Assembly: GCA_964506905.1 (NCBI GenBank)
Contig: CAZDNW010000012.1
Coordinates: forward strand, 1-36,002
Source: an uncultured Candidatus Saccharibacteria bacterium
GTDB lineage: Bacteria; Patescibacteriota; WWE3; 2-01-FULL-39-13
Reading direction: 5' to 3'
Length of the DNA: 36,002 nt
Shown: positions 1,103 to 23,627 of the stretch, one piece after another
Layout of the letters: every line of letters starts with the position of its first letter
Numbering within the stretch: the stretch's first letter is position 1
The notes under the pieces: model-generated
The model's input: only the letters and a program-made list of their open reading frames with translations
The model's database searches: none
What the model was told of the DNA's origin: nothing
Translations under genes and position numbers: made by a program

Positions 1103-3070
1103 ATGAAGTTATCTAAAAATTTTATATTTTTATTCTTTTTAACCTTTGTTGCTTTATTTTTATTTCACTCACCGACCTTTGCTAAAGATTCTAATCTAAA
1201 TGGATATAAGAATTTGCCTACAAGAAATTTTAATAATAAAGTTCCGACCGAAGAGGTTATATCCGACTATAATGTTGCAATCAAAATTAATAAAGACGCA
1301 TCGTTAACAGTTACAGAAAAAATAAAGGTTTATGCTAAGAATATAAATATTAGGCATGGTATCTATAGAGATTATCCGACTAAATATTCTGATGATAAAG
1401 GTACCAAAAAAAGTGCTAGTTTTAATGTTTTAGAAGTGAAAATGGATAATTTTCCGATTGTATACTATATATCAAAAATAACTGGAGGCAAAAGATTATA
1501 CATTGGAGATTCAGAAAAACTAATTTTACCAGGATGGCATGAATTTACAATAAAATACAATACAAAAGGTCATGTTAGATATTTTGAAGATCACGATGAA
1601 ATTTATTATGATGCCATAGGTGATAGTTGGATGTTTCCTATAGAGAACGCGAAAGTGTTGGTTCAATTGCCTGATGGTGTTACAGAAGATATGGTTAAGT
1701 ACAAGGCATATGTTGGGAAATTTGGAGAATCAAACGATGATTACGAAGCTAAATCGGTTACTAGAGATGGCTATACCTATGTGTTATTTAAGACGAACAA
1801 TTCATTAGGTTCGTATACTGGTATGACAATTGTAGTGTCTTGGCCAAAAGGTTATGTACATGAACCTACTCAAAATGAAAAATTTATGATGTTTATAATG
1901 GATAACATTTGGTTATTCTCGAGTATTTTTGTACTTGCCTTTGTTCTTGGATACTATTTTATTGTTTGGTGGTTTAAGGGTAGAGACCCGTATGCTAATA
2001 AAGTGGTAATTCCTGAATATGAATTACCAAAAGATGTATCACCAGCACTCGCCGGTTTTATCCACCAAATGGGTTTTAACGATAAACAATTTACTTCAGC
2101 TATTATTGATATGGCTATAAAAGGTGTACTTAAAATAAATGCTGTCTCTAAAAAAGAATATGTTTTAGAAAAAGTTAAAGAAGCCCCATCTAATTTATAT
2201 CCTGAAGAACAAAATTTGTATGATAGTATGTTTAGTACAGAAACTGACTTTAAAATTAGTAAAACAAATTATTCTTCTGTTCAAAAAGTAGTAAAAGCTT
2301 TTAAAAAATTCTTAGATAAAAATTATAAAAGTGAATATTTTACGGAAAATATAAAATACTACATAATACCAATAATAGTAACTACCTTATATGTACTGTT
2401 TTTTGCTGGATCATTTATTGTTGTATTTATTATATTGATTTCCGTTGGGTTATCTATTCAGAAGCTAATTGATACTAAACTAAATCGTATCCATAGTTAT
2501 GTAGATAAAGCAAAAATTATTTTTGGAATTATTGGCGTCTTGCTTTTTATATTATTTTTATTATTTGATAGAGCAGATTCAGAATTCATAGTATTGTATA
2601 CAGGGGTATTACTTGTTGTCATACAAATATTAATAGGAAATGCATTATACGCAAGAACAAAAAAAGGAAGTGAAATAGAGATGCATATACTTGGGTTGAT
2701 AAAATTTTTAACAATTACAGAAAAAGATAGATATAATGCGGAAATAAGCAGTAAAGTTCCCAAAAATATGTCTACATACGAAAAATACTTGCCATATGCG
2801 GTAGCATTGGATGTAGAACCAATTTGGACTAAGAAATTTAGAAATGTAATTGACGAATTTATGAAAGAAAATATGGATAATAATAAGATGCTAAATTATT
2901 GGATAATCGGAAACGGGTTAAATGACCTTGGATCAATTTCTAATTTTAATTCTGCATTTGCAAACACAATTACAACTTCTGCAACTTATTCATCTTCATC
3001 GTCATCGTCAGGATTTGGTGGCGGCTTTGTAGGTGGTGGCAGTGGTGGAGGCGGAGGTGGAGGTTGGTAG
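1103..3070 (+). CDS. DUF2207 domain-containing membrane protein
   Basis: Signal peptide, ~230-aa extracellular domain, several TM helices, and the family-typical Ser/Gly tail SSSSSSSGFGGGFVGGGSGGGGGGGW. Confidence 0.85.
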   Translation: MKLSKNFIFLFFLTFVALFLFHSPTFAKDSNLNGYKNLPTRNFNNKVPTEEVISDYNVAIKINKDASLTVTEKIKVYAKNINIRHGIYRDYPTKYSDDKGTKKSASFNVLEVKMDNFPIVYYISKITGGKRLYIGDSEKLILPGWHEFTIKYNTKGHVRYFEDHDEIYYDAIGDSWMFPIENAKVLVQLPDGVTEDMVKYKAYVGKFGESNDDYEAKSVTRDGYTYVLFKTNNSLGSYTGMTIVVSWPKGYVHEPTQNEKFMMFIMDNIWLFSSIFVLAFVLGYYFIVWWFKGRDPYANKVVIPEYELPKDVSPALAGFIHQMGFNDKQFTSAIIDMAIKGVLKINAVSKKEYVLEKVKEAPSNLYPEEQNLYDSMFSTETDFKISKTNYSSVQKVVKAFKKFLDKNYKSEYFTENIKYYIIPIIVTTLYVLFFAGSFIVVFIILISVGLSIQKLIDTKLNRIHSYVDKAKIIFGIIGVLLFILFLLFDRADSEFIVLYTGVLLVVIQILIGNALYARTKKGSEIEMHILGLIKFLTITEKDRYNAEISSKVPKNMSTYEKYLPYAVALDVEPIWTKKFRNVIDEFMKENMDNNKMLNYWIIGNGLNDLGSISNFNSAFANTITTSATYSSSSSSSGFGGGFVGGGSGGGGGGGW

Positions 3071-3127
3071 TTTATGATGTGTTTGCGTTATTTACCTTAT
3101 TATTAATAGTGTATTATGTTTTAGAAT

Positions 3128-5245
3128 ATGAAAATAATAGAAAAAGATAATGCCCCAAGAAACCGAATAAGACCATTAATATATCTAAAGAGATTTATAG
3201 TTTTAATGATAATGGCATTTGTGCCTGTAGTTGTTACGGATTTCTTTTTAGATGGATTTTATATTAGTGATTGGCTTTCGTTATTTTTATTTGTATTTAT
3301 CTTAGGACTTTTAAATACTTTTATTTGGCCATTAATTTCTAAATTAGCATTTCCATTCGTTCTTGCAACATTAGGATTTGGTTCATTGATATTGAATGGA
3401 ATATTTATCGCAGTTGCGAGTTACTTAATTAAAGGAGTATCCGTTGGAACTATTACAGAAGGTATTGCAGTAACACTTAGTATCATTGTAGTTACTATGA
3501 TACTTAATTTAATATTTTCAGTTGATGACGATTATTCATATTATAGATATGTTTTAAATAGAACAAACAGAAAAAACACAGTAGATAAAGAAAAGGAAAA
3601 AGAACTTAAAAATAAAAAACCAGGGATTATATTTGTTGAGATTGATGGATTAGCCTATCCAATCATAAAAAAAGCAATTGAGATGGGTAAGATGCCTACA
3701 TTAAAAGGATTATTAGAAAATGGTAATTATAAACTAGTACATTGGGTTACAGAAATGGCTTCACAAACAAGTGCAAGCCAAGCGGGAATTTTGTTAGGAA
3801 ACAATAAAAATGTTCCTGCATTTAGATGGGTTGATAGAAAAAACAACCATAAAGTAGTTACATCTTCTGATCCAGATGATACTCCTAGAATTGAAGAAGA
3901 ATTATCGAACGGTGAAGGATTGTTATCTATTAACGGTGCTAGTAGGGTTAATATGTATTCAGGTGATGCAAGTGATACACTTTTTACTTTAAGTAAAATA
4001 AAGCAATTAAAGAATGTATATAATAGAGTTTTGATAACTTATTTTTCGCACCCGTACAATTTCTCAAGAACTTTTATACTATTTATATTTGAAATATTTT
4101 TGGAATATAGAAGCAGATTAAGACAAAAAAGAAAACATATTGAGCCAAGATTAGGTGGCGAAAAAAGAGGTGGAATATATCCGCTTGTTCGTGCAGCGAT
4201 GACTGTTTTCATGAGAGATTTAAATACATATGCACTTATTAATGATATATATAGAGGAGAATTTAATGTTATATATTCCACGTATGCGGCTTATGACGAA
4301 ATTGCACATCATTCGGGAATAGAAGATGATGATGCTTATAAAACTCTTGGTAAATTAGATAAACAATTTAGAAGACTTAAATTTGCAATAAAAGAAGCAC
4401 CGAGAAAATATAATGTTGTACTTCTTTCAGATCACGGGCAAACAGGAGGAAAAACATTCAAGCAAAGATATGGGTATACCTTGGGCGATTATGTTAGAAA
4501 TATATTAAAGAATAATTTCAATGTTAGCGGATATTTAAGCAACGATGAAGGTGTAAGTAATGTTAAAGCGGTTTTATCAACTATTATAAAAGAAGGTAGT
4601 ACAGTTGATAAACAAATTAACAAAGCACTAGATAAATTGGAGGATGATGATTTACCAACAATAAAAGGTAAGGATATTAAAGAAGACAGTGAATTATCTG
4701 AAGAAATGGATGAAAGATTAGAAAAAGATGTAATTGTTTTAGCTTCTGGGAATTTAGGATTGATATACTTTAAAGAATATAAAGAAAGAATAGATTACGA
4801 AGAAATTGAAAATAAAGCTTCGGGGTTTTTAGATGATTTAGTAAAGCATGAAGGGATAGGTTTTATAATGGTTAAAAATAGAGACAACCATGCAGTTGTT
4901 ATAAGTAAAGACGGAAAACATAACTTAACAACCGGAGAAATTGAAGGTGAAGATCCACTTAAACCATTTGGTAAATATGCTAAGCAATCTGTATTAAGGA
5001 TACATACATTTGATAATTGTCCAGATATCTTAGTTAATAGTTTTTATGATGAGGACAATAATGAAGGAGCAGCTTTTGAAGAATTGATTGGTTTCCATGG
5101 GGGGCTAGGTGGCACACAGAATCTAGGATTTGTTATGTACCCATCGGATCAATTTGAATTCCCTAAAGAAGAAGTTTACGGTGCTGAAAGCCTTTATCAT
5201 ATATTTAAGCAATGGCTTGATACCGTTGACAAAAAAAGTTTATGA
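3128..5245 (+). CDS. membrane-anchored alkaline phosphatase / nucleotide pyrophosphatase-phosphodiesterase family protein
   Basis: N-terminal ~140 aa form four hydrophobic helices (DUF360/holin-4-like). This is followed by PGIIFVEIDGLAYP, MASQTSASQAG and LLSDHGQTGG motifs of the alkaline-phosphatase superfamily. Ends at TGA 5243-5245. Confidence 0.8.
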   Translation: MKIIEKDNAPRNRIRPLIYLKRFIVLMIMAFVPVVVTDFFLDGFYISDWLSLFLFVFILGLLNTFIWPLISKLAFPFVLATLGFGSLILNGIFIAVASYLIKGVSVGTITEGIAVTLSIIVVTMILNLIFSVDDDYSYYRYVLNRTNRKNTVDKEKEKELKNKKPGIIFVEIDGLAYPIIKKAIEMGKMPTLKGLLENGNYKLVHWVTEMASQTSASQAGILLGNNKNVPAFRWVDRKNNHKVVTSSDPDDTPRIEEELSNGEGLLSINGASRVNMYSGDASDTLFTLSKIKQLKNVYNRVLITYFSHPYNFSRTFILFIFEIFLEYRSRLRQKRKHIEPRLGGEKRGGIYPLVRAAMTVFMRDLNTYALINDIYRGEFNVIYSTYAAYDEIAHHSGIEDDDAYKTLGKLDKQFRRLKFAIKEAPRKYNVVLLSDHGQTGGKTFKQRYGYTLGDYVRNILKNNFNVSGYLSNDEGVSNVKAVLSTIIKEGSTVDKQINKALDKLEDDDLPTIKGKDIKEDSELSEEMDERLEKDVIVLASGNLGLIYFKEYKERIDYEEIENKASGFLDDLVKHEGIGFIMVKNRDNHAVVISKDGKHNLTTGEIEGEDPLKPFGKYAKQSVLRIHTFDNCPDILVNSFYDEDNNEGAAFEELIGFHGGLGGTQNLGFVMYPSDQFEFPKEEVYGAESLYHIFKQWLDTVDKKSL

Positions 5246-5295
5246 GAGTATCTTATAGTTAGTGGTAGTTATTTAACTACTTGTCCTTATTACTT

Positions 5296-8200
5296 ATGAA
5301 AAAAATCCCAATGTTTAAATTACTAAATTACATTGCAATATTGTCAATGTTAATTCAAACTTTTTTGCCTATATTTTATGTTTATCCTTCCAATATTTAT
5401 GCACAACAAGATGATTCAGTGGTGTTATTAGAAGAATCCAATTTTGATGATTCAAATGATAAAGATGTCGATTCTACGTTAAATAAAAATCAAGAGCAAA
5501 AGGAGACTGAAAATAATAACGATAATGAAGATACAAATGATAATGATAAGGAAGATAATAAAGGCAATGATATTACTATAAAAGATAGTGACGATATAGA
5601 AAAACCTTCGGATAAAGAAGTTAATGAAGAAATTCTAGATGAATCAAATAATGACATTGAAGATACTAAGATAATAGAAGATGATGATAATGAATCAACT
5701 CCTAATGTTGATGAAACCAATGATTCCTTTATTGATGGCACCGATGAAGTGATGACAGATGAGGAATCTGATGTTACAAATGACAATAAATCACTGGATG
5801 CAGATCTTGCTAATAAAGATAATCAAACAGAAAAAGAGAGTACGGATGATGAGGATAATAAAGACACGAAGTCTAATTCAAATGAAAGCGATGAAGAAGC
5901 CAATGAGGAAACACAGATAACATACGGTAAATGGGAAAAGAAAGAAGATAATAAATACAGAATTTATGTCGAACCGCAAAAGGAATATAAGTTTGAATTT
6001 CTAGATGATGAGAAAGTTCCTACAATAAAATTTAAAGACATAGATGAAGATAATAAAGAACAAGATAGATATATTGATGTAGAAATAATTGAATTGTCAA
6101 AAAAGCAACAAGAAGCTCTTAATTCTGTAGACGATAATGCATATGATATTACTTCGGGAATGGATAATGGGACTTTTGAATACGAATTGGTTTTGCCGTT
6201 ATCAGAATCTGTAGATGAAAATGTTGTATCAGTAAATTATGTCGAAGATAAAGATACATTAGAAAAGGTTGTTAAGTCACAGGATAAAAAAGAAATCAAT
6301 AAAGTAAATGAAGATAATGTGGAAGTCTCTAACGATCTAGTTAGCATAAAAGATTTAGATCACTTCACAATATTTTATGTAAGCGCAACTGCATCAGGTA
6401 ATGTTTGTGTTATAAGTGGAACGACATACAATAACTGTTATCCAACAATACAAGAAGCTATAAATAATGCTTCTGATGGAGATACAATAGAGATTGCTCC
6501 GGATACATATACAGAAAATTTAATTGTAAATAAAGAATTAACTTTAGTTGGTATGGGAGCTAAAATTAATGATGTAACAGTTAGAACAAACACAAATGGA
6601 TCACAATCGTCTCCTGCATATGGAGTAGAAATAAAGTCTGACAATGTAACCATTAAAAATATAAGATTTCAATCACGATTGGGATATGGGTTTCATTTTA
6701 AAGTTTCTAATGTTAATAATTTTACAATAGAAGATGTTAAGCTAACAAACAAAAAGAAAAATAAAACTGTTAGAGGTTTAGATCTTAATAGTGTTGAAAA
6801 TGTTTTAATTAAAAATGTAACTGTTAAAAATTATAGGGTTCATGGTATAGGTGTTGTCTCGGTTTGTGGAAATAATGATATAACAAGTAAAGATATTATA
6901 TTTGAAAATGTGGTAGTCAAAAACACTAAATCACAAAGTGGATATGCTGGCGCAGGCATAGCGTTTTATACGCAAGCTGGTCCAAGCTGTAGTCCAAATC
7001 AAGGTGCAGATATTACAGGTGTAAAATTTGTTGGAGATAATTATTTAACGGATAACGAAATTGGAATTACATTGCAGTCAGATTTAGATTTAATCTCTAA
7101 TTCTCTATTGCAAATATGTTTATCAAACCCAAGTGGTCCAGCTTGTGTAAATGCCATTTCTGGATTGCCGACATTAAATCCAAATTATGGTGTTTATGGA
7201 CCCAATGGCGAAAAACTAGATTTACATAACATGACAATCCAAACATTAGGCAGTAGTGGGAGAATATTTCCATCAATTAGTATTCTTAATTTAGTTAAAT
7301 CTGATGTGGATGCAACCGAAGTTAAATTTGATGGTAAAGATGGCATAGGTGCAGATATGCAAACTGCAAATGAAATAGAAGATACGATTTGGCATGATTG
7401 TAAATATTCACCATATCCTCATGGATTTTGTAATGCTATAGAAAATTTAGTAAGTACTGAAAATTTTGGAAGTGTTGATTATACAGATTGGTCATTTAAG
7501 ATAAAAGGTCATAAATACAATTATATTTATTCAGGGCAACAAGGTCAGCCAACTCATCACCCAATATCTGATTGGGATATAACTGTATGTGAGTACGAAA
7601 ATGGTGATGTTATTCAAGGTACTTGTGTTACTAAATCTACAGATAATAGTGGATATTATGAGTTTGGGTATGATGATCTTGGAGTAATGCTTGGAAAAGT
7701 ATACAAAATTTTTGAAGAACCTGGTAGAACTGACTATACCTATATGCAACCAGAATCATATATAGTTGATTTTACTTCTTCAAATCCTGTTTATTATACA
7801 GAAGATAATTTAATTGAAAACGGAGATTTTGAAACTCCTAAATTATCTACAAGTTGGACAACATATCCAGATGGATATACTGGGCTAGGGTGGACACCTG
7901 CGTGGGTATCTACCAACCTAAGTGATCAAGAAAAAGATGGATATCGAAGACCAATGCCTCCAAGAGTTGAAATTCAAAAGGTTTATGATGGTGATAATCA
8001 ATATGTAGAATTAGATGGTGATTGGGGAACCTCACAAAACAATTATGTTAACGGTGAAAACGCAAATATATATTTGTATCAAATGTTTCCGACTTGTAAT
8101 GGAGTAAAATATAATTTATCGTTTGACTGGTCTCCACGACCACACCATGATGATAATCAATTAAAGGTAACTGTAACCGATGTGTATAACAATAATATTT

Positions 8201-11200
8201 CGTATGAAGATACATTCTTGGATAGTGGGGATAGTAGTATAAATTGGACACCTATAACAGCATCTTTCGTTTCAAATACCTCATTAGTAAAAATAACTTT
8301 TCAAGAAATGGGCAATGGCGATTCGTATGGTGCTTTAATAGATAATGTATCTGTATATCAAGATAGTGGTGAAAATAATAAATGTCAGTATTCAGAAGAT
8401 TCAGAATTTAATTTTTATAACAGAGTTAATAATGATGATGATAATTTAGTACCAATTTTAGTTGCACCAAAACAAACTGGTTACAATGAAGATAATGGTG
8501 ATTCATATGAAACACCACACTATCCTGATGAAAATGAAATTGCTTGTACTGGTGGAGTTACAAATGTAAATGAAGTTTCTGTACATTGGTATTTACTTGA
8601 TGAAAATGGTAATCAAGTGAATATCCCTAACTTGAAATATTTAAGGCAATTCACAACGCCGGGTTCTTCTACATGGAGAGGTCATGAAGTTTACACAACT
8701 CCTTATACAAATTATAGAACCTTTGGTGGAAATCCAGGTCATCCTGGAACATATGGCTCTAGAGTAAGAGCTTGGGTTGATTCCAATAATAATAATCAAA
8801 TAGATTTAGGTGAAGCTGTATCTGAATGGAGTAATGAATGTTCAATAACATACGAATTACCACCAGTTTGTGGAAACGAAATAGTTGAAACCGGTGAAGA
8901 ATGTGATGGTACCAGTGGAGTAGGTGAAGGTGAATTTTGTACATCTCAATGTAAATTAATCCCGGTTTACGACGGAATGAATTCATGTCCAGATGGTACT
9001 GTTGAGGTTCCAACTGGTACACAATTTACTTTGTCAAGTAAAACGGCAAATGAAGTTTCGCATAATTTTGAAAGTGGTAAAAGGTATTTATTAAAAGCAA
9101 GTGGAACCTATTCTTATGCAAATACGGAAGGTAGAAAAGCAGATGCTGCATATGGCACAACAGATAATTTTGCAAATTCTAGATCAGATATAGGTATATG
9201 GGGAACTAATAAAGGTGTTACTTCAATAATTGGTGATCTTGGTAGAGGTATGGGAGTAATAATGTGGGATGATGACCAAAATATAAATTCCAACCATGTA
9301 TATACCAAGTATTTTAATCCTCAAGCAGATGTGTTAGGTAGATTTGTAATTAGCGATTGGTATGGTGATTGGTATGGTAGTGGTTGCAATAATCAATCTT
9401 GCTTAAGTGATAATAACGGATCATTAACACTTTCTGTAAATGAATGTGCTGAGGTTTTAACACCAGTAAAACCATACTGTGACGAAACAAAAATATTTGC
9501 AAGATTGGTTGATAGTACAGAATATGGAATTAGTACAGATTCAGATTGGAATACAGATGTAGATGGCAAAATATTTTACGGTGATAAAGTTGTTAATGTA
9601 GGTGAGTGGTTTGAACTAACACCTACAACAAACAATAGAGATGAAGGTGCTGTATTATCTTATGACGGAAATAAATTATCAATAAACTTATTGGAATTTA
9701 AAGATAATGATAAGTTTCAAAGATTTAAAGGTAAAATTGAATTTTATAAGACTGCGGTAGATAATATAGAAGAAGGAACAGGTGATTATGCACTTGAAAC
9801 CTGTAACGGTTGTTATCCAGATTCTTATAATCAAGATTCATTAAAGACAGTTTCGTTTGACTTTGGTGTAACAAATGCAAATGACCAAATAAATGTAAGT
9901 TTACATCATCTAGGTTGTGCATTAGAAGCGTGTACAAATGATTTTGCGGTAAACAATGATGGTTATATATATAAGATTAATCTACAAAATGGTGATGAAC
10001 AAATAATAGATGAGCTGGAATTCGGCACATCAGCAGCTGCATCTCAACCAGGCAAAGGAAATGTTTATTATATAGAACGATATAATACATCAGGTAAAAA
10101 AGGGTTAAGATTAGCTTATTATGATATTAATGCTAGAGTAAATGTAGTAGTAGGAAACACAGGCATTAATGGTGTAATAGATAAATTAGCATTTAACGAA
10201 GATGGTGTTTTGTATGCGATGAGTTCAAACTCTGTTTTATATACAGTTGATATTACAACAGGGCAGGCAACAAAACTAGGCAAAGTATTAGGAATTACAA
10301 AACCAGGTGGAGATTTATCATTTGATAATAAAGGTGATATGTATGTTCATGTAAAGGGAGGAAATCTTTATAAGGTAAATCTATATACATTAAATGCGGA
10401 AGTAGTATCAGATACTGATATTGAATCAACTGGAATGGTATTTAAAGACAAATTTTACGCTACAGATGATAATGAGAGTTTATTTGATTTCGACTATAAT
10501 GGTTCGGTTAATATAATAAGTACCTCAACAAGCAATATAAATGACTTAGCAAGTTGCCCTGTTAAAGTTTTAAAATCTAATGTAACTGTTTGTAAGGTAG
10601 ATACAAAAGACAATTACCTAGAAGGTTGGAATGTGCAACTATTAAGAGACGAAGTGCAAAAAGATATAAGTGTACCAGTTCAAGGCGGGGCAAGTGTGCA
10701 TTCTGCATATTTACCAAAAGGCAATTATGTATTAAGCGCACATGGCACATATGAATATAGGGGAAACACAGGACTTTTAACTGATCCAAATTATTCTCAA
10801 AGATTAAAAGGTGATAATTATAGTGGTAGTGAAGAATTTTTCCCATGGATAAATGTAAATGATTTTAATCCTCCTCATGAAGGTTGGTTAGGGGTTATGG
10901 TAAATAACATGCCAACTAATTGGAGTAATTATTTATCAAGCAATCACACATATTATTTAGGGTATACAAATTATTCAGGTGAATTTAGATTCAATATATA
11001 CGATAATGTATATTCTGATAATAAAAACAGTACTATAGCCGTTGATATCTATACTGGTTATGCTGGTACAACAGGTAAAAATGGTTGTGTTACATTTGAA
11101 AATGTTCCTTATGGAGATTATGAGGTATCAGAAACTTTAAGGGATGGTTATATAAATGTAACTGGGTTAGGAAATGTAGAAGTAAACGACCTAGAAGAAA

Positions 11201-14200
11201 CATTTACTATTGAAAATAGAGATATAAGGCCAGCTAAAGTATTGGCAGCAAAAATAGTTTGTGATGATGAAAAATATTTACCAAATTGGGGTGCAAATAG
11301 AGGTGGTATCCCAATTAACGAAAATACAATTGATAACTTTTTTAATGCAGATCCTGATAGAAAAAACCATTGTGAAGTTGTAAAAGATTGGAAATTTCAA
11401 TGGGGATATGCAGGTACAGTTAGTTTTCCAGCTGATGATTTTGTTGGTGAAGCACAAGGTTGGAATACATTTGGACCTGCAGTAAATGGTGAATACGCAG
11501 TAGCAGAAGTTCCATTAGAAGAAGAGGGTATTAACTTAATTTGGGTAAGAGAAGTATTGCAGGATAACTACATACCATTTTCTTTCGGATTAAACGGCAA
11601 AACAAACAAAGACGATTATAGTGCTGAATTTTATTGTAATACAGATGGTGCAAATTATGACAATAGAGATGGAATAGGCAAAATAAGAAGACATGATGAA
11701 CCGATTATGAATAATAAGACATACTATTGCGTTGGATTTAATGCAATTCAAAAGTCAATAATAGAAGGTTATAAATTTAATGACTTAAATCATAATGGAG
11801 TTTGGGATAAAAACGAACCTGCAATGTCTGGGTGGCAAATTTATATTGATGAAAATAATAACGGTAATTTGGATGCAGGAGAAAAAGTTGTAGATACAGA
11901 TAAAAACGGATATTACAGTTTTGTCTTACCATCAAATAACACATATGTAGTGAGAGAGTTAAATCAAAACGGTTGGGAACAAACTAGTCCAGATACAGGT
12001 AGTTGCGAATTTGAAGATGTCGAAGATAGAGTTCATTATGAATGCAATTTTGGAAATGTAAAACTTGGATTGATGAAGGGCTATAAATTTAATGATTTGA
12101 ACCATGATAGTGCTTGGGGTGAAGATGAGCCCGCAATGTCAGGTTGGGAAATTTACATAGATTCTAATAATAATGGCATATTTGATGATGGGGAATTAAA
12201 CGGTATTACAGATGAAAACGGTTATTATGAATTTACAAATCTTTATCCAGGTACTTACAAAGTTTGTGAAGTTTTACAACCAGGGTGGAATCAATCATTT
12301 CCTGAATTTACAGATGGATGTTATTCAATAACATTAACAGGTGATGTAAATGAGACTTACGATACAGATTATAATTTTGGAAATTATGCTGGGGAGCCAC
12401 TTATGAAAGTTGCTGAATATAATGATGCATCTATAATGGCATTAGAATCTGCAAGTCCAATTACATTTACAATAAAACTTAGGTTTGATGAGATAGAAGA
12501 ATACGAAGCACTTGCTGATAATGTTAAGATTACTCACTTATTGCCCGAAGGTGTTACATATATACCTGGATCATATACAATAGAATCCTCTACAGGTAGA
12601 GATATGTCATCTATATCAGAAGCTGTTTATCACTCACCGGGTACTTGGGATTTAACACCGGCAGGTCCTTATGTAGAAGGTGAAGAAATCACATTAACAT
12701 TAAAAGCAAATGTTGATACAAGTGTAGTAGAGCCAGGGGTATTAAAAGATATCACATGGGCAGAATCAACACCTATTGATGATAATAATGAAGTAATATT
12801 AGCAGAAGCAGATCCAGTAGGAGGTTATGTCGCAGAAAAATTTGTTGGTACAGATGTGGAATTTACTAGTGAACCTGATTCACCAAAAGCAAATGCAGAA
12901 GTAGAAGAAAAAGAAGAAGTAAAAGAAGTTACCGAAGAGGGCCAAGTATTAGGAGCATCAACAACAGCGCTGCCAGCAACCGGTGCAAGTGCAAACTTAC
13001 TTGCTTTTGCAATGTTAATTTTAACAATAGGTGCAGCAAGTTTGCTTTATGGTATGAAAAAACAACAAGATTCAGTGGTTGTAGATAAAAGAAAAGGTAA
13101 GACTTCCGCAAAAAAGACCAAGAGAGTTGTCAAATCCTCAAAATCTAAAAAGGTAAATAAAATAGTGGCAGTGTTGATTGCGTCTTTAACATTAACATCT
13201 TTATTATTAATGGGAATTCAAACGCCGGCTTATGCTGCCGATGAATATCCTGTAATGGTTAGGGTTGAACAACCAAAGACGCCAACAAACGAGCCATTTA
13301 AATTAACATTTGTTGCGGTGGATACAGCTAATAGAGAAGTTCAAGTCACATGTTTTGTAAAAAACCCTGATGGAACAGAATCTCAATTTGATGTAGTAAA
13401 AACCTTAAAGGCAGGAGGAAACACTGATTCTTGTGATGCTAACACATCTGTTTTAAACAAAAACGGAACATATGAATTTTGGGTAACTGCTGAAGCGTTA
13501 GAAAACGAAAGTGTGAGTGGTGCTTCTGCAACAAGTGAAAGAGTAAAGGTTGATTATTCAACTTCAAACCCAGATGAACCAAAAGATTTCGAAGTAGACA
13601 AGAAAAATAATTGTGAGTATAAGATTAAATTTAAAACTGCTGATGATGGTGAAACCTCATATGTTGAAGTGTATAGATCAGACGATACAACATTCTCAGT
13701 AGGTGAAAGTACTAGAGTAAAAACAATATCAATAAACCCGAACGAGAAGTATGAGTATACTGACACACTTGCGGGTTCACAATGCGGACATACACAATAC
13801 TACGCAATAAGAGCATTTAATAGTGCTGGAAATCCATCAGATGTTGTAGCTCAAGAAAAAGTTGTGATAGTTGAAGAGGTAAAAGAATCTGAAGGTGAAA
13901 CAGAAGAAACGGGACAAACACAAGAGACAGAGGCAATAATTGTTCCTACAGAAGCTAGCACTGTAGCACAAGGCGGTGTAGAAGGTGCAGAAGTTGTTGC
14001 AGAAGGCAGCATTGCAACAGATGGAAATGGGGAAGTAAAAGGTGCCGCAACAGAAAACGAAGACCAAACAAATAATACCAATACAGAAAACACAGACAAT
14101 CAAAATTCTGATGATACTGGTGGAATAAAATCATTATTTTCGTTTAGAAATATAATAATAGGATTAATTGCATTGTTATTATTAGGTGGAGCTATTTTCT

Positions 14201-14211
14201 TAATACTTTAG
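5296..14211 (+). CDS. giant secreted surface protein (~2,970 codons) with an internal LPATG sorting signal
   Basis: Single uninterrupted frame. ATG 5296 gives MKKIPMFKLLNYIAILSMLIQTF... signal peptide (track start TTG 5281). Regions in order: D/E/N-rich acidic low-complexity, beta-helix, jelly-roll, Cys-rich repeat, propeller-like repeats, two SdrD-B-type repeats, LPATG plus TM, second signal peptide, FN3-like module, terminal TM. Sortase gene lies immediately downstream. Confidence 0.85.
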   Translation: MKKIPMFKLLNYIAILSMLIQTFLPIFYVYPSNIYAQQDDSVVLLEESNFDDSNDKDVDSTLNKNQEQKETENNNDNEDTNDNDKEDNKGNDITIKDSDDIEKPSDKEVNEEILDESNNDIEDTKIIEDDDNESTPNVDETNDSFIDGTDEVMTDEESDVTNDNKSLDADLANKDNQTEKESTDDEDNKDTKSNSNESDEEANEETQITYGKWEKKEDNKYRIYVEPQKEYKFEFLDDEKVPTIKFKDIDEDNKEQDRYIDVEIIELSKKQQEALNSVDDNAYDITSGMDNGTFEYELVLPLSESVDENVVSVNYVEDKDTLEKVVKSQDKKEINKVNEDNVEVSNDLVSIKDLDHFTIFYVSATASGNVCVISGTTYNNCYPTIQEAINNASDGDTIEIAPDTYTENLIVNKELTLVGMGAKINDVTVRTNTNGSQSSPAYGVEIKSDNVTIKNIRFQSRLGYGFHFKVSNVNNFTIEDVKLTNKKKNKTVRGLDLNSVENVLIKNVTVKNYRVHGIGVVSVCGNNDITSKDIIFENVVVKNTKSQSGYAGAGIAFYTQAGPSCSPNQGADITGVKFVGDNYLTDNEIGITLQSDLDLISNSLLQICLSNPSGPACVNAISGLPTLNPNYGVYGPNGEKLDLHNMTIQTLGSSGRIFPSISILNLVKSDVDATEVKFDGKDGIGADMQTANEIEDTIWHDCKYSPYPHGFCNAIENLVSTENFGSVDYTDWSFKIKGHKYNYIYSGQQGQPTHHPISDWDITVCEYENGDVIQGTCVTKSTDNSGYYEFGYDDLGVMLGKVYKIFEEPGRTDYTYMQPESYIVDFTSSNPVYYTEDNLIENGDFETPKLSTSWTTYPDGYTGLGWTPAWVSTNLSDQEKDGYRRPMPPRVEIQKVYDGDNQYVELDGDWGTSQNNYVNGENANIYLYQMFPTCNGVKYNLSFDWSPRPHHDDNQLKVTVTDVYNNNISYEDTFLDSGDSSINWTPITASFVSNTSLVKITFQEMGNGDSYGALIDNVSVYQDSGENNKCQYSEDSEFNFYNRVNNDDDNLVPILVAPKQTGYNEDNGDSYETPHYPDENEIACTGGVTNVNEVSVHWYLLDENGNQVNIPNLKYLRQFTTPGSSTWRGHEVYTTPYTNYRTFGGNPGHPGTYGSRVRAWVDSNNNNQIDLGEAVSEWSNECSITYELPPVCGNEIVETGEECDGTSGVGEGEFCTSQCKLIPVYDGMNSCPDGTVEVPTGTQFTLSSKTANEVSHNFESGKRYLLKASGTYSYANTEGRKADAAYGTTDNFANSRSDIGIWGTNKGVTSIIGDLGRGMGVIMWDDDQNINSNHVYTKYFNPQADVLGRFVISDWYGDWYGSGCNNQSCLSDNNGSLTLSVNECAEVLTPVKPYCDETKIFARLVDSTEYGISTDSDWNTDVDGKIFYGDKVVNVGEWFELTPTTNNRDEGAVLSYDGNKLSINLLEFKDNDKFQRFKGKIEFYKTAVDNIEEGTGDYALETCNGCYPDSYNQDSLKTVSFDFGVTNANDQINVSLHHLGCALEACTNDFAVNNDGYIYKINLQNGDEQIIDELEFGTSAAASQPGKGNVYYIERYNTSGKKGLRLAYYDINARVNVVVGNTGINGVIDKLAFNEDGVLYAMSSNSVLYTVDITTGQATKLGKVLGITKPGGDLSFDNKGDMYVHVKGGNLYKVNLYTLNAEVVSDTDIESTGMVFKDKFYATDDNESLFDFDYNGSVNIISTSTSNINDLASCPVKVLKSNVTVCKVDTKDNYLEGWNVQLLRDEVQKDISVPVQGGASVHSAYLPKGNYVLSAHGTYEYRGNTGLLTDPNYSQRLKGDNYSGSEEFFPWINVNDFNPPHEGWLGVMVNNMPTNWSNYLSSNHTYYLGYTNYSGEFRFNIYDNVYSDNKNSTIAVDIYTGYAGTTGKNGCVTFENVPYGDYEVSETLRDGYINVTGLGNVEVNDLEETFTIENRDIRPAKVLAAKIVCDDEKYLPNWGANRGGIPINENTIDNFFNADPDRKNHCEVVKDWKFQWGYAGTVSFPADDFVGEAQGWNTFGPAVNGEYAVAEVPLEEEGINLIWVREVLQDNYIPFSFGLNGKTNKDDYSAEFYCNTDGANYDNRDGIGKIRRHDEPIMNNKTYYCVGFNAIQKSIIEGYKFNDLNHNGVWDKNEPAMSGWQIYIDENNNGNLDAGEKVVDTDKNGYYSFVLPSNNTYVVRELNQNGWEQTSPDTGSCEFEDVEDRVHYECNFGNVKLGLMKGYKFNDLNHDSAWGEDEPAMSGWEIYIDSNNNGIFDDGELNGITDENGYYEFTNLYPGTYKVCEVLQPGWNQSFPEFTDGCYSITLTGDVNETYDTDYNFGNYAGEPLMKVAEYNDASIMALESASPITFTIKLRFDEIEEYEALADNVKITHLLPEGVTYIPGSYTIESSTGRDMSSISEAVYHSPGTWDLTPAGPYVEGEEITLTLKANVDTSVVEPGVLKDITWAESTPIDDNNEVILAEADPVGGYVAEKFVGTDVEFTSEPDSPKANAEVEEKEEVKEVTEEGQVLGASTTALPATGASANLLAFAMLILTIGAASLLYGMKKQQDSVVVDKRKGKTSAKKTKRVVKSSKSKKVNKIVAVLIASLTLTSLLLMGIQTPAYAADEYPVMVRVEQPKTPTNEPFKLTFVAVDTANREVQVTCFVKNPDGTESQFDVVKTLKAGGNTDSCDANTSVLNKNGTYEFWVTAEALENESVSGASATSERVKVDYSTSNPDEPKDFEVDKKNNCEYKIKFKTADDGETSYVEVYRSDDTTFSVGESTRVKTISINPNEKYEYTDTLAGSQCGHTQYYAIRAFNSAGNPSDVVAQEKVVIVEEVKESEGETEETGQTQETEAIIVPTEASTVAQGGVEGAEVVAEGSIATDGNGEVKGAATENEDQTNNTNTENTDNQNSDDTGGIKSLFSFRNIIIGLIALLLLGGAIFLIL
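6430..7250 (+). other. right-handed parallel beta-helix (pectin-lyase-fold) region of the giant protein
   Basis: NNCYPTIQEAINNASDGDTIEIAPDTYTENLIVNKELTLVGMG, followed by repeated ~22-aa N/V/I-rich turns (IKNIRF, IEDVKLTN, IKNVTVKN, FENVVVKN). Confidence 0.6.
7816..8362 (+). other. CBM / DUF642-like jelly-roll domain of the giant protein
   Basis: ENGDFETPKL...GWTP...VEIQKVYDGDNQYVELDG...YNLSFDWSPRP...ALIDNVSVYQ, the pattern typical of DUF642/CBM4_9-type lectin domains. Confidence 0.5.
8869..8960 (+). other. Cys-rich repeat (Myxococcus-type CGNGxxExGEECD motif)
   Basis: CGNEIVETGEECDGTSGVGEGEFCTSQCKL read in frame. Confidence 0.55.
11767..12390 (+). repeat. two tandem SdrD-B / Cna-B-type repeats (protein-level repeat)
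   Basis: GYKFNDLNHNGVWDKNEPAMSGWQIYIDENNNGNLDAGE...DKNGYYSF and GYKFNDLNHDSAWGEDEPAMSGWEIYIDSNNNGIFDDGE...DENGYYEF. The DNA copies have diverged. Confidence 0.65.
12970..13053 (+). other. cell-wall sorting signal: LPATG plus hydrophobic helix
   Basis: ctg cca gca acc ggt (12970-12984) encodes LPATG. It is followed by ASANLLAFAMLILTIGAASLLYG and then the basic MKKQQ. Confidence 0.85.
13054..13236 (+). other. second signal-peptide-like segment inside the giant ORF (possible internal start ATG 13054)
   Basis: MKKQQDSVVVDKRKGKTSAKKTKRVVKSSKSKKVNK (basic n-region), then IVAVLIASLTLTSLLLMGI (h-region), then QTPAYA/ADE (AxA site after 13236). Confidence 0.55.
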
Positions 14212-14261: not shown

Positions 14262-14930
14262 ATGAAAATTAATAACAAATACCTAATATTTTTTGGAATT
14301 CTGCTAATTTTAACTGCATTAAGCTTATTGTTTGTGCAATTTTCACCGATTATAAGAGATGAAATTAAGTATAAAAAAACAAAAAATTTGGTTGAAAGCA
14401 TTGATGAAATTGTTATAAAACCAGAAGAAAACTCTAAAATTCCTAAAGAAAATATTGAAAAGAAAAAAAAGAGGCTTGTTATAGTAGCTAGAGATAAAGA
14501 CTTTTCTATTGTAATACCTAAAATTGGAGCAAATGCTAAAGTAATTGAAAATATAGACCCGTATAACTCATCTGAATATCAAAAAGCTCTTACAAAAGGG
14601 GTGGCACATGCAAAAGGCACTGCTTTACCGAATGAAAACGGAAATACATTTATTTTCGCTCATTCATCTGATAATTTTTATAATGCTAACAGATATAATT
14701 CAATCTTTTATTTATTAAATAAGATGGAAAAAGGTGATGACATTTATATTGTGTATAACGGAAAAGTTATTCCATATAAAGTAAAAGAAACAAAGATAGT
14801 TGATAAAGATAAAATTGAGTATCTAAAAAATAGCGAAAGGAAAAAAGATAATGAATTAACTCTTATGACTTGCTGGCCCCCAGGTACTACATACAAAAGA
14901 TTAATTGTTATAGCAGAAAAAAACAAATAG
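14262..14930 (+). CDS. sortase (transpeptidase), N-terminal membrane anchor
   Basis: TM helix YLIFFGILLILTALSLLFVQF, catalytic His in FIFAHSS, TLMTCWPPG (TLxTC Cys) and a downstream conserved Arg (YKRLIV). Adjacent to the LPATG substrate. Confidence 0.9.
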   Translation: MKINNKYLIFFGILLILTALSLLFVQFSPIIRDEIKYKKTKNLVESIDEIVIKPEENSKIPKENIEKKKKRLVIVARDKDFSIVIPKIGANAKVIENIDPYNSSEYQKALTKGVAHAKGTALPNENGNTFIFAHSSDNFYNANRYNSIFYLLNKMEKGDDIYIVYNGKVIPYKVKETKIVDKDKIEYLKNSERKKDNELTLMTCWPPGTTYKRLIVIAEKNK

Positions 14931-15024
14931 AAAATTTAGACCTACACAACTCCAGTATATAATGTATTATAAAAAGGTAGAGTAATTATAGTTAATTATT
15001 TTTCAAGTGGAGGTGAAATAGAAT

Positions 15025-15843
15025 ATGAAATTTTTAAAGTTAAGAAAAGGAGAATCTAATTTAGCTATTCCAATCGCAATACTGATTGCAGGTGTATTAA
15101 TTGCAGGAGCTGTTTTATATACAAATAGTTCTAAGACAAATATGCTTGGTGGTAAGAGTGCAGATAGCACAACCGAATCAGGCGGTAAATATGCTAAATA
15201 TGTAAAAATAGCAGAGGATATTGGTTTAGATGGCGATAAGTTTGAAGCATGTATGGAAAAGTTTGATAAAACAGAGGTAGAAAAAGATGTTGAAGAAGCT
15301 AAAACCTATGGGGCAAACGGAACTCCAACTTTCTTCCTCGGTGTGAAAAAAGGTGACAATGAAATAGAAGCCGTTAAACTTGTTGGGGCTCAACCATTTG
15401 ATGCGTTTAAACCTGTATTAGATACATTAGTTGAAACTAAGGATATAAACAAGGCTATTGAAGCATTACCCGACAATATGAAGGTTGATCAAACTGGTAA
15501 TCCAATTGAAGTTAAAACAGTTAATGTGTCTTTAGATGATGATGCAGTTAGGGGAAATAAAGATGCGGATGTTTATATTGTGGAATTCTCTGATTATGAA
15601 TGTCCATTTTGTAAGAGATACTCAACTACTACGCTTAAGGAAATTGAGGATAATTATGTAAAAAGTGGCAAAGTTGCATATGTATTCAGAGACTTAACAT
15701 TACCGTTTCACGAACCAGTTGCAACAGAAGAAGCTGTGGCAGCAAATTGTGCAAGATTATTAGGTGGAGATGATGCATATTATCAGTATCATGATAAAAT
15801 TTTTGAACTTACCCGATCAAATAAACAAGGAATTCCAGAATAA
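15025..15843 (+). CDS. membrane-anchored DsbA-family thiol:disulfide oxidoreductase, domain order apparently permuted
   Basis: GGAGGTG RBS at 15010-15016. TM anchor. CPFC active site at 15601-15612 within VYIVEFSDYECPFCKRY. The GLDxxKFxxC...GTPTFF...GAQPFxxF segment, which is normally C-terminal, lies upstream of it. Confidence 0.8.
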   Translation: MKFLKLRKGESNLAIPIAILIAGVLIAGAVLYTNSSKTNMLGGKSADSTTESGGKYAKYVKIAEDIGLDGDKFEACMEKFDKTEVEKDVEEAKTYGANGTPTFFLGVKKGDNEIEAVKLVGAQPFDAFKPVLDTLVETKDINKAIEALPDNMKVDQTGNPIEVKTVNVSLDDDAVRGNKDADVYIVEFSDYECPFCKRYSTTTLKEIEDNYVKSGKVAYVFRDLTLPFHEPVATEEAVAANCARLLGGDDAYYQYHDKIFELTRSNKQGIPE

Positions 15844-15867
15844 AAAACTTGCATAAGAAATTTAAAA

Positions 15868-15893
15868 GGCGGTGAAAAACACCGCCTTTTTTA
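15868..15893 (+). terminator. intrinsic terminator (A-tract before, T-tract after; potentially bidirectional)
   Basis: GGCGGTG, loop AAAAA, CACCGCC, then TTTTTTATT. Confidence 0.85.
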
Positions 15894-15951
15894 TTCATAA
15901 TAATTTACGGGTTTCTTAAATTAGTGATAAATGTTAACTTAGTAATCGTGT

Positions 15952-22606: not shown

Positions 22607-23086
22607 ATGAGCGGCAAAAAAAACGATGACAAAAAAATAATGATGACAAAAGAAGGCTATAAAAAACTAAAAGCCGAATATGACGATTTAGTAAATGTTC
22701 AAAGACCAGCTATTATTGCTGATATTCAATCTGCGAGAGAAATGGGAGATTTAAGGGAAAATGGATATTATTCTGCATCAAGAGAAAAACAATCTTTCAT
22801 TGAGGGAAGAATTAGAGAATTAGAAGAATTACTTAAAAATGCAGAAGTTGTGGAGGTTGAAAAGGATAGCGGTGTAGTAGGGTTAGGTTGTAAAGTAAAG
22901 GTAAAGGTGGTTGATAAAGAAATCGAATACCATATTGTTAGTCCAGAAGAAGTCGATTTTGAAAATAATAAAATTTCGCATGAATCGCCACTAGGAAAGT
23001 CATTGCTTGGTAAAAAAGTTGGCGATGATGTTGAATTTGATGCACCAGTAGGTAAAGTTACCTATAAAATTATTGAGATCAGTTAG
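22607..23086 (+). CDS. greA: transcription elongation factor GreA
   Basis: MTKEGYKKLKAEYDDL...AREMGDLRENGYYSASREKQ...RIRELEELLKNAEVV, plus the C-terminal ISHESPLGKSLLGKKVGD. The start could instead be ATG 22640. Confidence 0.9.
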   Translation: MSGKKNDDKKIMMTKEGYKKLKAEYDDLVNVQRPAIIADIQSAREMGDLRENGYYSASREKQSFIEGRIRELEELLKNAEVVEVEKDSGVVGLGCKVKVKVVDKEIEYHIVSPEEVDFENNKISHESPLGKSLLGKKVGDDVEFDAPVGKVTYKIIEIS

Positions 23087-23159
23087 TATTAGTGATTAGT
23101 TTACGAGATCACTATACTAATTTAAACTAATTTGTGTTTTGATCTCATCTATTCTCATT

Positions 23160-23627
23160 ATGGCAAAACAAAAAAAGTATTTTTTAACACCAGAAGGCTA
23201 CAAAAAACTAAAAGAAGAATTACATCGGTTGCGAGAAATTGATATGGTTAATGTTGCAGAAAAAATAAAAGCAGCAAGAGAGTTAGATGCTGATATTTTG
23301 GAAAATAATGTTTACGATGCGGCTGTAGAAGAGCAAGTTTTAATGGAAAATAGAATAGCTGAAATTGAAGATATATTATCAAATGCGAAGGTCGTAGAAA
23401 ATTCTGATAAAAGTAAAGTGGATTTAGGTGATGTGGTTGTAGTTAAAACTGAAGATGATACACATGAATTTAAATTAGTAGGAAGTGAAGAAGCAGATCC
23501 TGAAAAGAAACATATTTCACATGAGTCACCATTAGGTAAAGCCTTGTTAGGGGCAAAGGTGGGGGATACGGTTGAAGTTGAAACGCCAGCTACTAAGGTT
23601 AGATATACAATAGTTGAAATCAAATAA
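23160..23627 (+). CDS. second, more divergent GreA-family paralog
   Basis: LTPEGYKKLKEEL...ARELDADILENNVYDAAVEEQ...ISHESPLGKALLGAKVGD. ATG 23160 is preferred over the track's TTG 23139. Confidence 0.85.
   Translation: MAKQKKYFLTPEGYKKLKEELHRLREIDMVNVAEKIKAARELDADILENNVYDAAVEEQVLMENRIAEIEDILSNAKVVENSDKSKVDLGDVVVVKTEDDTHEFKLVGSEEADPEKKHISHESPLGKALLGAKVGDTVEVETPATKVRYTIVEIK

Follow-up and report, generated by a model that had tools for sequence, protein, structure and literature searches.

A naturally circularly permuted, membrane-anchored DsbA/MdbA-family protein conserved among bacteria of the Candidate Phyla Radiation

We analyzed a 36,002-nucleotide stretch of DNA (contig CAZDNW010000012.1 of assembly GCA_964506905.1, from an uncultured Candidatus Saccharibacteria bacterium of the WWE3 lineage; the whole stretch is called the window here) with respect to one gene, whose product a preliminary description, made from the sequence alone, had proposed to be a DsbA-family protein with its two halves in swapped order. 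The open reading frame (ORF) is complete, with 272 codons and a stop (Table 1). Its product runs from a transmembrane (TM) anchor and a spacer into a block equivalent to the C-terminal half of DsbA (residues 55-136), then through a linker (residues 137-164) into a block equivalent to the N-terminal half, which carries a CPFC active site (residues 165-272). The canonical order of DsbA elements (beta1, CxxC-alpha1, beta3, helical domain, cis-Pro, beta4, beta5, alpha7) is therefore not kept but rotated. It is highly probable, in our judgment, that the gene encodes a naturally circularly permuted, functional, membrane-anchored, extracytoplasmic thiol-disulfide oxidoreductase of the DsbA/BdbD/MdbA family, the activity and substrates of which we infer from its relatives and surroundings.

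The swapped order was apparent with both Pfam and custom profiles. Thioredoxin_4 (PF13462) matched with an E-value of 4e-23 and 82.8 bits (cut-off 23.2), profile positions 4-87 of 165 falling on residues 172-260, and DSBA (PF01323) matched with 48.5 bits (cut-off 25.6), positions 125-188 of 191 falling on residues 59-130. Since the C-terminal portion of the profile falls on the N-terminal side of the protein, and vice versa, the two halves are in reversed order. A custom hidden Markov model (HMM) of 264 match states, built from 80 canonical relatives, assigned residues 55-136 to states 181-263 and residues 146-270 to states 56-180, with the break at 180/181. The preliminary description had placed the two blocks at about 15187-15430 and 15547-15843 and had remarked that the sequence ends at the point from which an ordinary DsbA would run on into its GLD segment; both statements are correct.

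BLASTP gave the same picture when the reference was the canonical domain of the related protein P0050 (residues 72-264, 193 residues), written once or twice. Against the single domain, the query produced two swapped high-scoring segment pairs (HSPs; query 162-272 on subject 2-112 and query 47-136 on subject 101-193), which together tile the entire domain (subject 2-193). Against the doubled domain, it produced a single HSP (query 47-272 on subject 101-305) of 229 columns with 44 % identity and an E-value of 1e-62, in which 27 gap columns correspond to the linker. Relative to the canonical domain, no part is missing and none is substantially duplicated. We also wrote the query in canonical order (residues 143-272 followed by residues 52-142). 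This de-permuted query aligned with 4pwp, 3eu3, 4n30 and 3f4r in a single stretch straight through the artificial junction (for example, 30-187 with 68-219 of 4pwp, and 5-214 with 5-209 of 3f4r), and the E-value against solved DsbAs improved from 2e-10 to 1.4e-13. Chance is excluded as the source of this arrangement by the E-values and by its retention in 33 other proteins, described below.

Structure prediction indicates that the rotated sequence can form a complete domain. AlphaFold2, run on an alignment of 25 family members, returned a model with a mean predicted local distance difference test score (pLDDT) of 86.9 and a predicted template-modeling score of 0.77; pLDDT exceeded 90 for nearly all of residues 55-272. 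In the C-terminal-half block, the model has helices at residues 57-65, 70-79 and 83-94 (alpha4-alpha6), strands at 102-108 and 113-120 (beta4 and beta5) and a helix at 125-138 (alpha7). The N-terminal-half block has strands at 165-169 (beta1) and 183-189 (beta2), a helix at 194-212 (alpha1), a strand at 217-223 (beta3) and helices within 232-262 (alpha2/alpha3). In the model, G99-T100-P101 precedes strand 102-108, and helix 194-212 starts at the CPFC motif. A control model of canonical P0050 has the order beta1, beta2, alpha1, beta3, alpha2/3, loop 174-182, alpha4, alpha5, alpha6, beta4, beta5, alpha7. The order in the permuted model is an exact cyclic rotation of this, with all elements present, and the natural cut maps to P0050 loop 174-182, within the lowest-confidence ten-residue block of the domain (residues 171-180, mean pLDDT 81). 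Both halves are thus predicted to rebuild one ordinary DsbA domain, a thioredoxin fold with an inserted alpha-helical domain. The suggestion of a natural circular permutation is therefore borne out as far as homology and modeling go: both halves are homologous to DsbA, and the AlphaFold model reconstitutes the thioredoxin/DsbA fold. The linker, however, which had been put at about 40 residues, spans about 28 in the model (residues 137-164).

Structure searches with Foldseek behaved as a permutation would predict. Canonical DsbAs (4n30, BdbD 3eu3/3eu4, TsdA and alpha-DsbA1) were aligned with the permuted model over just 91-103 columns (target TM-score, TMt, 0.31-0.49), whereas the canonical control was aligned over 179-192 columns with the best monomeric canonical DsbAs, BdbD included (TMt up to 0.87). 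Such half-domain matches are expected of a circular permutation, Foldseek being a sequential aligner. At E <= 0.001 the permuted model had 7 matches and the control 196, a blind spot for annotation and structure searching in which sequential aligners detect half a domain. All 7 of these matches, and all others down to an E-value of about 0.15, were DsbA-family structures. The sole entry of the PDB that was aligned over the whole domain (219 columns) was 1un2, which lay outside the top 50 matches of the canonical control. This entry is cpDsbA_Q100T99, an engineered circular permutant of E. coli DsbA (Hennecke et al. 1999; Manjasetty et al. 2004). The looseness of the superposition (root-mean-square deviation of 6.9 Å, TMt 0.52) has to be counted against a natural permutation of this type.

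The permuted order is not confined to the window. Homologues classified with the custom HMM fell into three architectures: 24 further permuted proteins, 8 tandem DsbA-DsbA proteins and approximately 86 canonical single-domain proteins, the last carrying names such as Pacebacteria, Woesebacteria, WWE3 and similar. The 24 permuted relatives, drawn from NCBI, JGI, ENA and Logan assemblies, share 41-69 % identity with the query. An exhaustive profile search covering 1.84 billion representatives contributed 9 further permuted clusters, so that 12 of the top 150 representatives at 50 % clustering are permuted. The breakpoint is nearly uniform, as 33 of the 34 permuted proteins end at HMM states 179-181, within one position of 180, and the remaining one ends at state 171. 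The permuted gene is present in 9 GTDB species genomes, and locus L010 is a 945-kb chromosome (OZ246395.1). The metagenome-assembled genomes (MAGs) with permuted loci include some labeled WWE3 (L008, 69 % identity), Daviesbacteria (L012) and Dojkabacteria (L014 and L018) as well as several others, and all of the permuted loci have a low GC content (0.32-0.40). Across the 25 aligned family members, C76, T100, P101, C193, P194, C196 and C242 are invariant. The permuted gene is followed in the window and in L001, L004 and L008 by the same series of genes, namely a 116-residue YgjP-like gene, VanW/PG_binding_4, a minus-strand ORF and TGT; L009 keeps this order except for the YgjP-like gene, which is placed elsewhere in the locus. 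The survey of relatives recommended in the preliminary description thus found the same order in many independent assemblies, and we conclude that the order is heritable and conserved in a clade of tiny, uncultivated bacteria of the Candidate Phyla Radiation (CPR) and is not an artefact.

The gene itself is a complete unit with a promoter-like site, a ribosome-binding site, an ORF and a terminator. The translated 108-nucleotide intergenic region after the stop codon contains no relic of a lost C-terminal half, and the terminator is found there instead. The promoter candidate is weak evidence, because promoter-like sites are no more frequent in this region than expected from shuffled sequence. 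Basic residues (K2, K5, R7 and K8) lie N-terminal to the TM helix, and by the positive-inside rule the catalytic domain is predicted to be exoplasmic, that is, the protein is predicted to be anchored in the membrane with its catalytic domain facing outside. The first block contains helices alpha4-alpha6 of the helical domain, the cis-Pro loop, beta4, beta5 and alpha7; the second contains beta1, beta2, CPFC-alpha1, beta3, helices alpha2/alpha3 and a TxSNxxG tail. In DsbA-type proteins, the Thr-cisPro loop packs against the active site. CPFC likewise occupies the active site in the alignments with C. diphtheriae 4pwp and TsdA. In the family alignment the linker, which includes a short helix at residues 141-146, is partly conserved, variable in length and without a canonical counterpart.

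Table 1. Features of the permuted DsbA gene and its immediate neighbors. Coordinates refer to the window unless a locus is named.
Feature	Coordinates	Strand	Basis or remark
Giant surface protein, 2976 residues	5281-14211	+	42 Cys, mostly in close pairs; LPATG at residue 2564; candidate substrate
Sortase gene	14262-14930	+	Directly upstream; PF04203, E=6.6e-26; candidate functional partner
Sigma-70-like promoter candidate, TTTAGA-17-TATAAT (10/12)	14935-14963	+	Upstream of the permuted DsbA gene; consensus match only
Shine-Dalgarno sequence, GGAGGTG	15009-15015	+	9 nt before ATG; read from the sequence
Circularly permuted DsbA/MdbA-like thiol-disulfide oxidoreductase ORF	15025-15843	+	Pfam, custom HMM, AlphaFold
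N-terminal TM signal-anchor, residues 14-34	15064-15126	+	AlphaFold helix 15-34; hydrophobic stretch conserved in family alignment
Low-complexity spacer, residues 35-54	15127-15186	+	pLDDT <50
Block equivalent to canonical DsbA C-terminal half, residues 55-136	15187-15432	+	HMM states 181-263; PF01323 125-188/191; model elements
Cys76 codon	15250-15252	+	Invariant in family; aligns with Cys157 of P. aeruginosa DsbA2 (4n30)
Thr100-Pro101, Thr-cisPro loop motif (GTP)	15322-15327	+	T100 and P101 invariant; putative cis conformation
Linker from old C-terminus (alpha7) to old N-terminus (beta1), residues 137-164	15433-15516	+	AlphaFold, pLDDT >=90
Block equivalent to canonical DsbA N-terminal half, residues 165-272	15517-15840	+	HMM states 56-180; PF13462 4-87; model elements
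Catalytic Cys193-Pro-Phe-Cys196 (CPFC)	15601-15612	+	C193, P194 and C196 invariant; directly before helix 194-212
Cys242 codon	15748-15750	+	Aligns with Cys111 of P. aeruginosa DsbA2; putative second partner of structural disulfide
Intrinsic terminator: 11-bp stem (6 GC pairs), 5-nt loop, T-run	15864-15897	+	20 nt past stop codon
YgjP-like gene, 116 residues	15952-16302 (window); 10914-11264 (L001); 10931-11281 (L004); 1358-1708 (L008)

The natural protein and cpDsbA_Q100T99 are alike in that both have their new termini in the helical insertion domain, between alpha3 and alpha4, and their old termini joined by a linker. To relate the numbering of the two, the family profile was compared by hhalign with single sequences of E. 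coli DsbA and cpDsbA; the matches were short and local (probability ~31 %) and serve as an anchor for residue numbering, not as evidence of collinearity. They place query G67-V107 on G116-G157 of E. coli DsbA, and by this mapping the natural domain would start at about E. coli residue 100-105, essentially at the site of the viable engineered permutant Q100/T99. The engineered linker is reportedly only 5 residues long (GGGTG), compared with about 28 residues and a short helix in the window protein. The latter also differs in being natural, in its low identity (~14 %), in belonging to the BdbD/MdbA/PaDsbA2-like branch (PF13462) and in its membrane anchor. In addition, a structural disulfide probably bridges the break in the window protein, whereas E. 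coli DsbA has none.

This second Cys pair may account for the tolerance of the cut. When the de-permuted query was aligned with P. aeruginosa DsbA2 (PaDsbA2, 4n30), C242 fell on Cys111 and C76 on Cys157, and the junction (between GIPE and SGGK) fell at Pro140/Gly141. In PaDsbA2, the disulfide Cys111-Cys157 joins helices 3 and 5, residues 131-151 form a coil, and the redox potential falls from -67.5 to -118 mV when the structural disulfide is removed (Arts et al., PMC3870256). The same work describes Phe68 before the second catalytic Cys and Thr183 in the cis-Pro loop of PaDsbA2 (PMC3870256), and active-site features of this type are found in the window protein as well (CPFC and T100-P101). The two extra Cys covary: every canonical and permuted sequence and 6 tandem proteins have both, and the 2 other tandem proteins have neither. 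It seems likely, then, that Cys76-Cys242 is equivalent to Cys157-Cys111 of PaDsbA2 and that the cut lies inside a disulfide-closed surface coil. A Cys76-Cys242 bond would tie the segments at the new N- and C-termini to each other covalently, and the cut site is probably tolerated for this reason. PaDsbA2 and Wolbachia alpha-DsbA1 (3f4r), which have a second disulfide in the helical domain, resemble the window protein in having a CxFC-type site, a Thr before the cis-Pro, an extra Cys pair and an SNG.G coil. However, both are Gram-negative periplasmic proteins of canonical order in which the disulfide-closed coil is intact, whereas in the window protein the corresponding coil is cut.

Explanations other than a functional natural permutant were considered in light of these results. 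The window probably comes from a metagenomic contig, and a false join of two incomplete DsbA genes or reads in the linker (15430-15550) is conceivable in principle. However, such an assembly join is excluded because the permuted order is conserved across independent assemblies: the same order and breakpoint recur in 33 further proteins, for which the projects and assemblers were independent of each other (NCBI, JGI, ENA and Logan), including the chromosome OZ246395.1, while the linker is partly conserved and confidently modeled and the downstream synteny is conserved. We give a chimera practically no credence. Decay of a tandem DsbA-DsbA gene into a non-functional remnant is also very improbable. 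Tandem arrays are indeed common, and a degenerate copy of a loop may persist at the N-terminal edge (see below), but none of the 25 aligned family members, which share only 42-70 % identity with the query, departs from CPxC, the Thr-Pro loop or the structural Cys pair, the breakpoint is uniform, the ribosome-binding site and terminator are intact with no relic downstream, and the fold prediction is confident. Finally, the halves might complement each other between chains, in a domain-swapped dimer or oligomer, in which case the protein would not be a monomeric oxidase but a multimeric isomerase or reductase resembling DsbC or ScsC. Swapping of this kind occurs readily in circular permutants and in proteins derived from tandem fusions, a linker this long leaves room for it, and oligomeric ScsC and BcfH relatives were among the Foldseek matches. 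Nevertheless, the AlphaFold monomer packs both halves into one compact, high-confidence domain, a linker of this length is ample for intramolecular closure, and the protein has no dedicated oligomerization domain, so that domain swapping appears improbable.

With respect to function, we favor an MdbA-like oxidase because of the predicted exoplasmic location, the oxidase relatives, the CPR context and the sortase/adhesin neighborhood. The closest characterized relatives by sequence are oxidases (C. diphtheriae DsbA 4pwp, B. subtilis BdbD and PaDsbA2), and TsdA (7unn), a paralogous oxidoreductase of C. diphtheriae, is also among the relatives. In the CPR, MdbA-like oxidoreductases are enriched and often stand beside VKOR, sortases are common in Microgenomates, and the CPR MdbA-like family has been proposed to be oxidative and linked to sortase and pilus biology, with no mention of permutation (Meheust et al. 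2019, PMC6744442). On balance, the protein is probably a general MdbA-like oxidase with the neighboring adhesin among its substrates. The permuted enzyme would oxidize Cys pairs of Sec-exported proteins, including those of the Cys-rich LPXTG adhesin handled by the adjacent sortase. The preliminary description had noted the position directly after the adhesin and its sortase; this neighborhood is found in the window and in L004, where the permuted protein is 46 % identical and the homologue of the giant surface protein carries SpaA/SpaA_2 matches. Two observations weigh against this reading. Sortase adjacency is absent in L001, which has an aminoacyl-tRNA synthetase upstream, and in L009 and L011-L015, and other clades have other contexts; and Pfam scans of 20 window ORFs revealed no VKOR or DsbB. 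Both would fit a permuted DsbA-fold reductase or isomerase, or a specialized enzyme such as a copper-stress ScsC-like protein, for which the sortase/adhesin adjacency would be coincidental. So would a pair of genes identified by eye at L011 (10897-13367, minus strand), 2-5 kb downstream of the divergent permuted DsbA, which encode a CcdA/DsbD-like membrane protein (with an INPCA motif) and a pyridine-nucleotide-disulfide-oxidoreductase-like protein and could constitute a reducing pathway. However, the closest characterized relatives are oxidases, PaDsbA2 shares the CxFC site, the Thr-cisPro and the extra Cys pair, and the CPR family is the one proposed to be oxidative (PMC6744442). A reductase or isomerase is therefore unlikely in our assessment, and we retain the MdbA-like oxidase as the preferred reading.

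By sequence, the nearest relatives of the permuted proteins are the canonical single-domain DsbAs of the CPR (MdbA-like fam000318, Meheust et al. 2019; here P0050 of Pacebacteria and P0103 of WWE3), with 56-59 % identity in the N-terminal half and 40-47 % in the C-terminal half. They share with the permuted proteins an N-terminal TM anchor, four Cys and the motifs VS.DDD..G, EFSDYECPFC, PFH.P.AT, AANCAR, T.SNG.G and GTP.FF.G. However, their N-terminal half precedes the C-terminal half without a linker between them, and their membrane tether leads into beta1 of the thioredoxin core, whereas in the permuted form it leads into helix alpha4 of the cap. In L043, L053, L059 and L071, an ORF of about 370 residues lies approximately 1 kb downstream of the canonical DsbA and shows a partial DsbA-like match (HMM states ~60-232); this ORF could encode a paralogue or a fusion protein, with VKOR as one conceivable partner. 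The best PDB sequence matches of the window protein were C. diphtheriae 4pwp and TsdA 7unn. MdbA of Actinomyces oris and C. diphtheriae (4pwp is labeled DsbA; TsdA is 7unn) is similar in being membrane-anchored, in having CPFC and in operating in a monoderm-type envelope, and it has been linked genetically or functionally to sortase substrates (PMC6744442; PMC5478893). MdbA differs in its canonical order and in having VKOR as a known reoxidant, none being seen among the scanned window ORFs; moreover, the link to sortase consists, in the permuted family, of adjacency in a subset of genomes.

Tandem DsbA arrays offer a plausible route to the permuted form. They dominate the exhaustive search, accounting for most of the top 150 representative clusters, with 70 triple, 19 double and 10 quadruple arrays among 146 representatives, which indicates that the duplication step is common in the superfamily. 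The arrays retrieved in that search (most of P0121-P0266) contain 2-6 complete DsbA domains per polypeptide and reach 1196 residues, and a triple array is present in an Ardenticatenaceae MAG (L077, 3736-5736). Each inter-domain junction of a tandem protein (C-terminal half, linker, N-terminal half) can be aligned with the permuted profile over its full length. A protein of the permuted kind would result from a tandem fusion of two DsbA domains by loss of the first N-terminal half and the last C-terminal half. The preliminary description had proposed this sequence of events, and the abundance of tandem arrays speaks for it. However, the arrays that would represent the precursor class (P0020, P0027 and P0097, L077 and most of P0121-P0266) have complete domains throughout, and those with names come from lineages outside the CPR ('archaeon', Anaerolineae and Ardenticatenaceae) and are more distant in sequence. 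Three further results count against the proposed history. The permuted proteins are nearest to single-domain CPR DsbAs (mean Kimura distance 0.64), and the retrieved tandem proteins lie at distances of at least 0.87; no convincing N-C-N or C-N-C intermediate was found among the 146 representatives; and the permuted group, although monophyletic in the best neighbor-joining tree, had a bootstrap value of 33/200 (full core) and was not recovered from the N-terminal half alone. Because this support is weak, we do not claim a single origin from the tree. A single origin is nevertheless the most likely course and rests mainly on the shared breakpoint; the permuted arrangement would have arisen once, in a CPR (Patescibacteria) lineage, and would have been kept since then under purifying selection.

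Candidate intermediates were inspected and rejected. P0171, P0162, P0231, P0255 and P0122 start at residues 1-5 or include very short fragments, and resemble truncations at contig edges or weak matches; matches of the 'C-F-F' type likewise look like contig-edge fragments. A trace of the duplication may exist at the N-terminal edge of the domain. The two BLASTP HSPs share about 12 subject residues, which belong to the TxSNGxGL loop, and in 17 of the 34 permuted proteins the C-terminal-half match begins before state 181. Part of the spacer (15163-15192, residues 47-56, DSTTESGGKY; TSNSLGS in P0008) has a faint similarity to the TxSNGxGL loop, with which the protein also terminates; duplication may have left it there as a degenerate extra copy of this loop. 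This reading is uncertain because the spacer is of low complexity.

The enzyme family is known, as is an engineered precedent cut at the same site; new is the natural permutation of the topology, which does not amount to a new kind of system. Full-text literature searches for natural permutants of DsbA or of the thioredoxin fold, and for DsbA in the CPR, returned as permutants only engineered ones and datasets derived from them, and the main text of a 2026 survey (CIRPIN) cites DsbA only as an engineered example. DsbA is a textbook model of engineered circular permutation, and a natural permutant cut essentially where cpDsbA_Q100T99 is cut suggests that evolution and random laboratory permutation have converged on one permissive site. 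The position of the cut, putatively inside a disulfide-closed coil, provides a testable rationale that could be reused in protein engineering, and the coexistence of single-domain, tandem-array and permuted forms makes the family suitable for studies of the duplication-deletion mechanism. For CPR biology, the protein is predicted to be a distinctive oxidative-folding enzyme, encoded beside genes for a sortase and an adhesin, in organisms that rely on attachment to surfaces. It is conceivable, albeit doubtful, that the permutation is itself adaptive: moving the tether from beta1 to the helical cap would re-orient the enzyme with respect to the membrane and the Sec/sortase machinery, the cut would lie within a disulfide loop that tunes the redox potential, and the permuted form would have replaced the canonical MdbA-like oxidase as a dedicated, possibly sole catalyst of oxidative folding in this CPR clade. 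If that were so, the single-domain, tandem and permuted forms would be a living series for the duplication-deletion route, and natural evolution would have arrived at the cut site that random permutation of E. coli DsbA yielded in the 1999 screen.

Several other features of the window deserve mention. The giant surface protein has its LPATG, a TM segment and a basic tail approximately 410 residues before its end, and the frame runs on without a stop past this region (residue 2564 onward, ~12970-14211) into a second signal peptide-like segment (KKVNKIVAVLIASLTLTSLLLMGIQTPAYA followed directly by ADEYP), a domain of about 380 residues and a C-terminal TM segment. By tblastn, the L004 homologue (2093-9214) aligns through the post-LPATG region (query 2255-2915), and the fused layout therefore appears to be conserved. 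The ORF may represent a sortase-cleaved two-part protein or contain an unrecognized internal gene start. The 116-residue YgjP-like gene that follows the permuted DsbA encodes half of a YgjP-like metallopeptidase with an HExxH motif, matching only positions 108-207 of 207 in PF01863; since its exact length and position are conserved in several genomes (Table 1), it is a stable mini-version and not a truncation. Upstream of the giant surface protein, a 705-residue protein (3128-5245) combines an N-terminal holin-like domain with four TM segments (PF04020) and a type I phosphodiesterase/nucleotide pyrophosphatase domain (PF01663), an unusual fusion. Finally, two adjacent full-length GreA/GreB paralogues are encoded at 22607-23086 and 23139-23627, and this pair is conserved in L001 (16517-17485).

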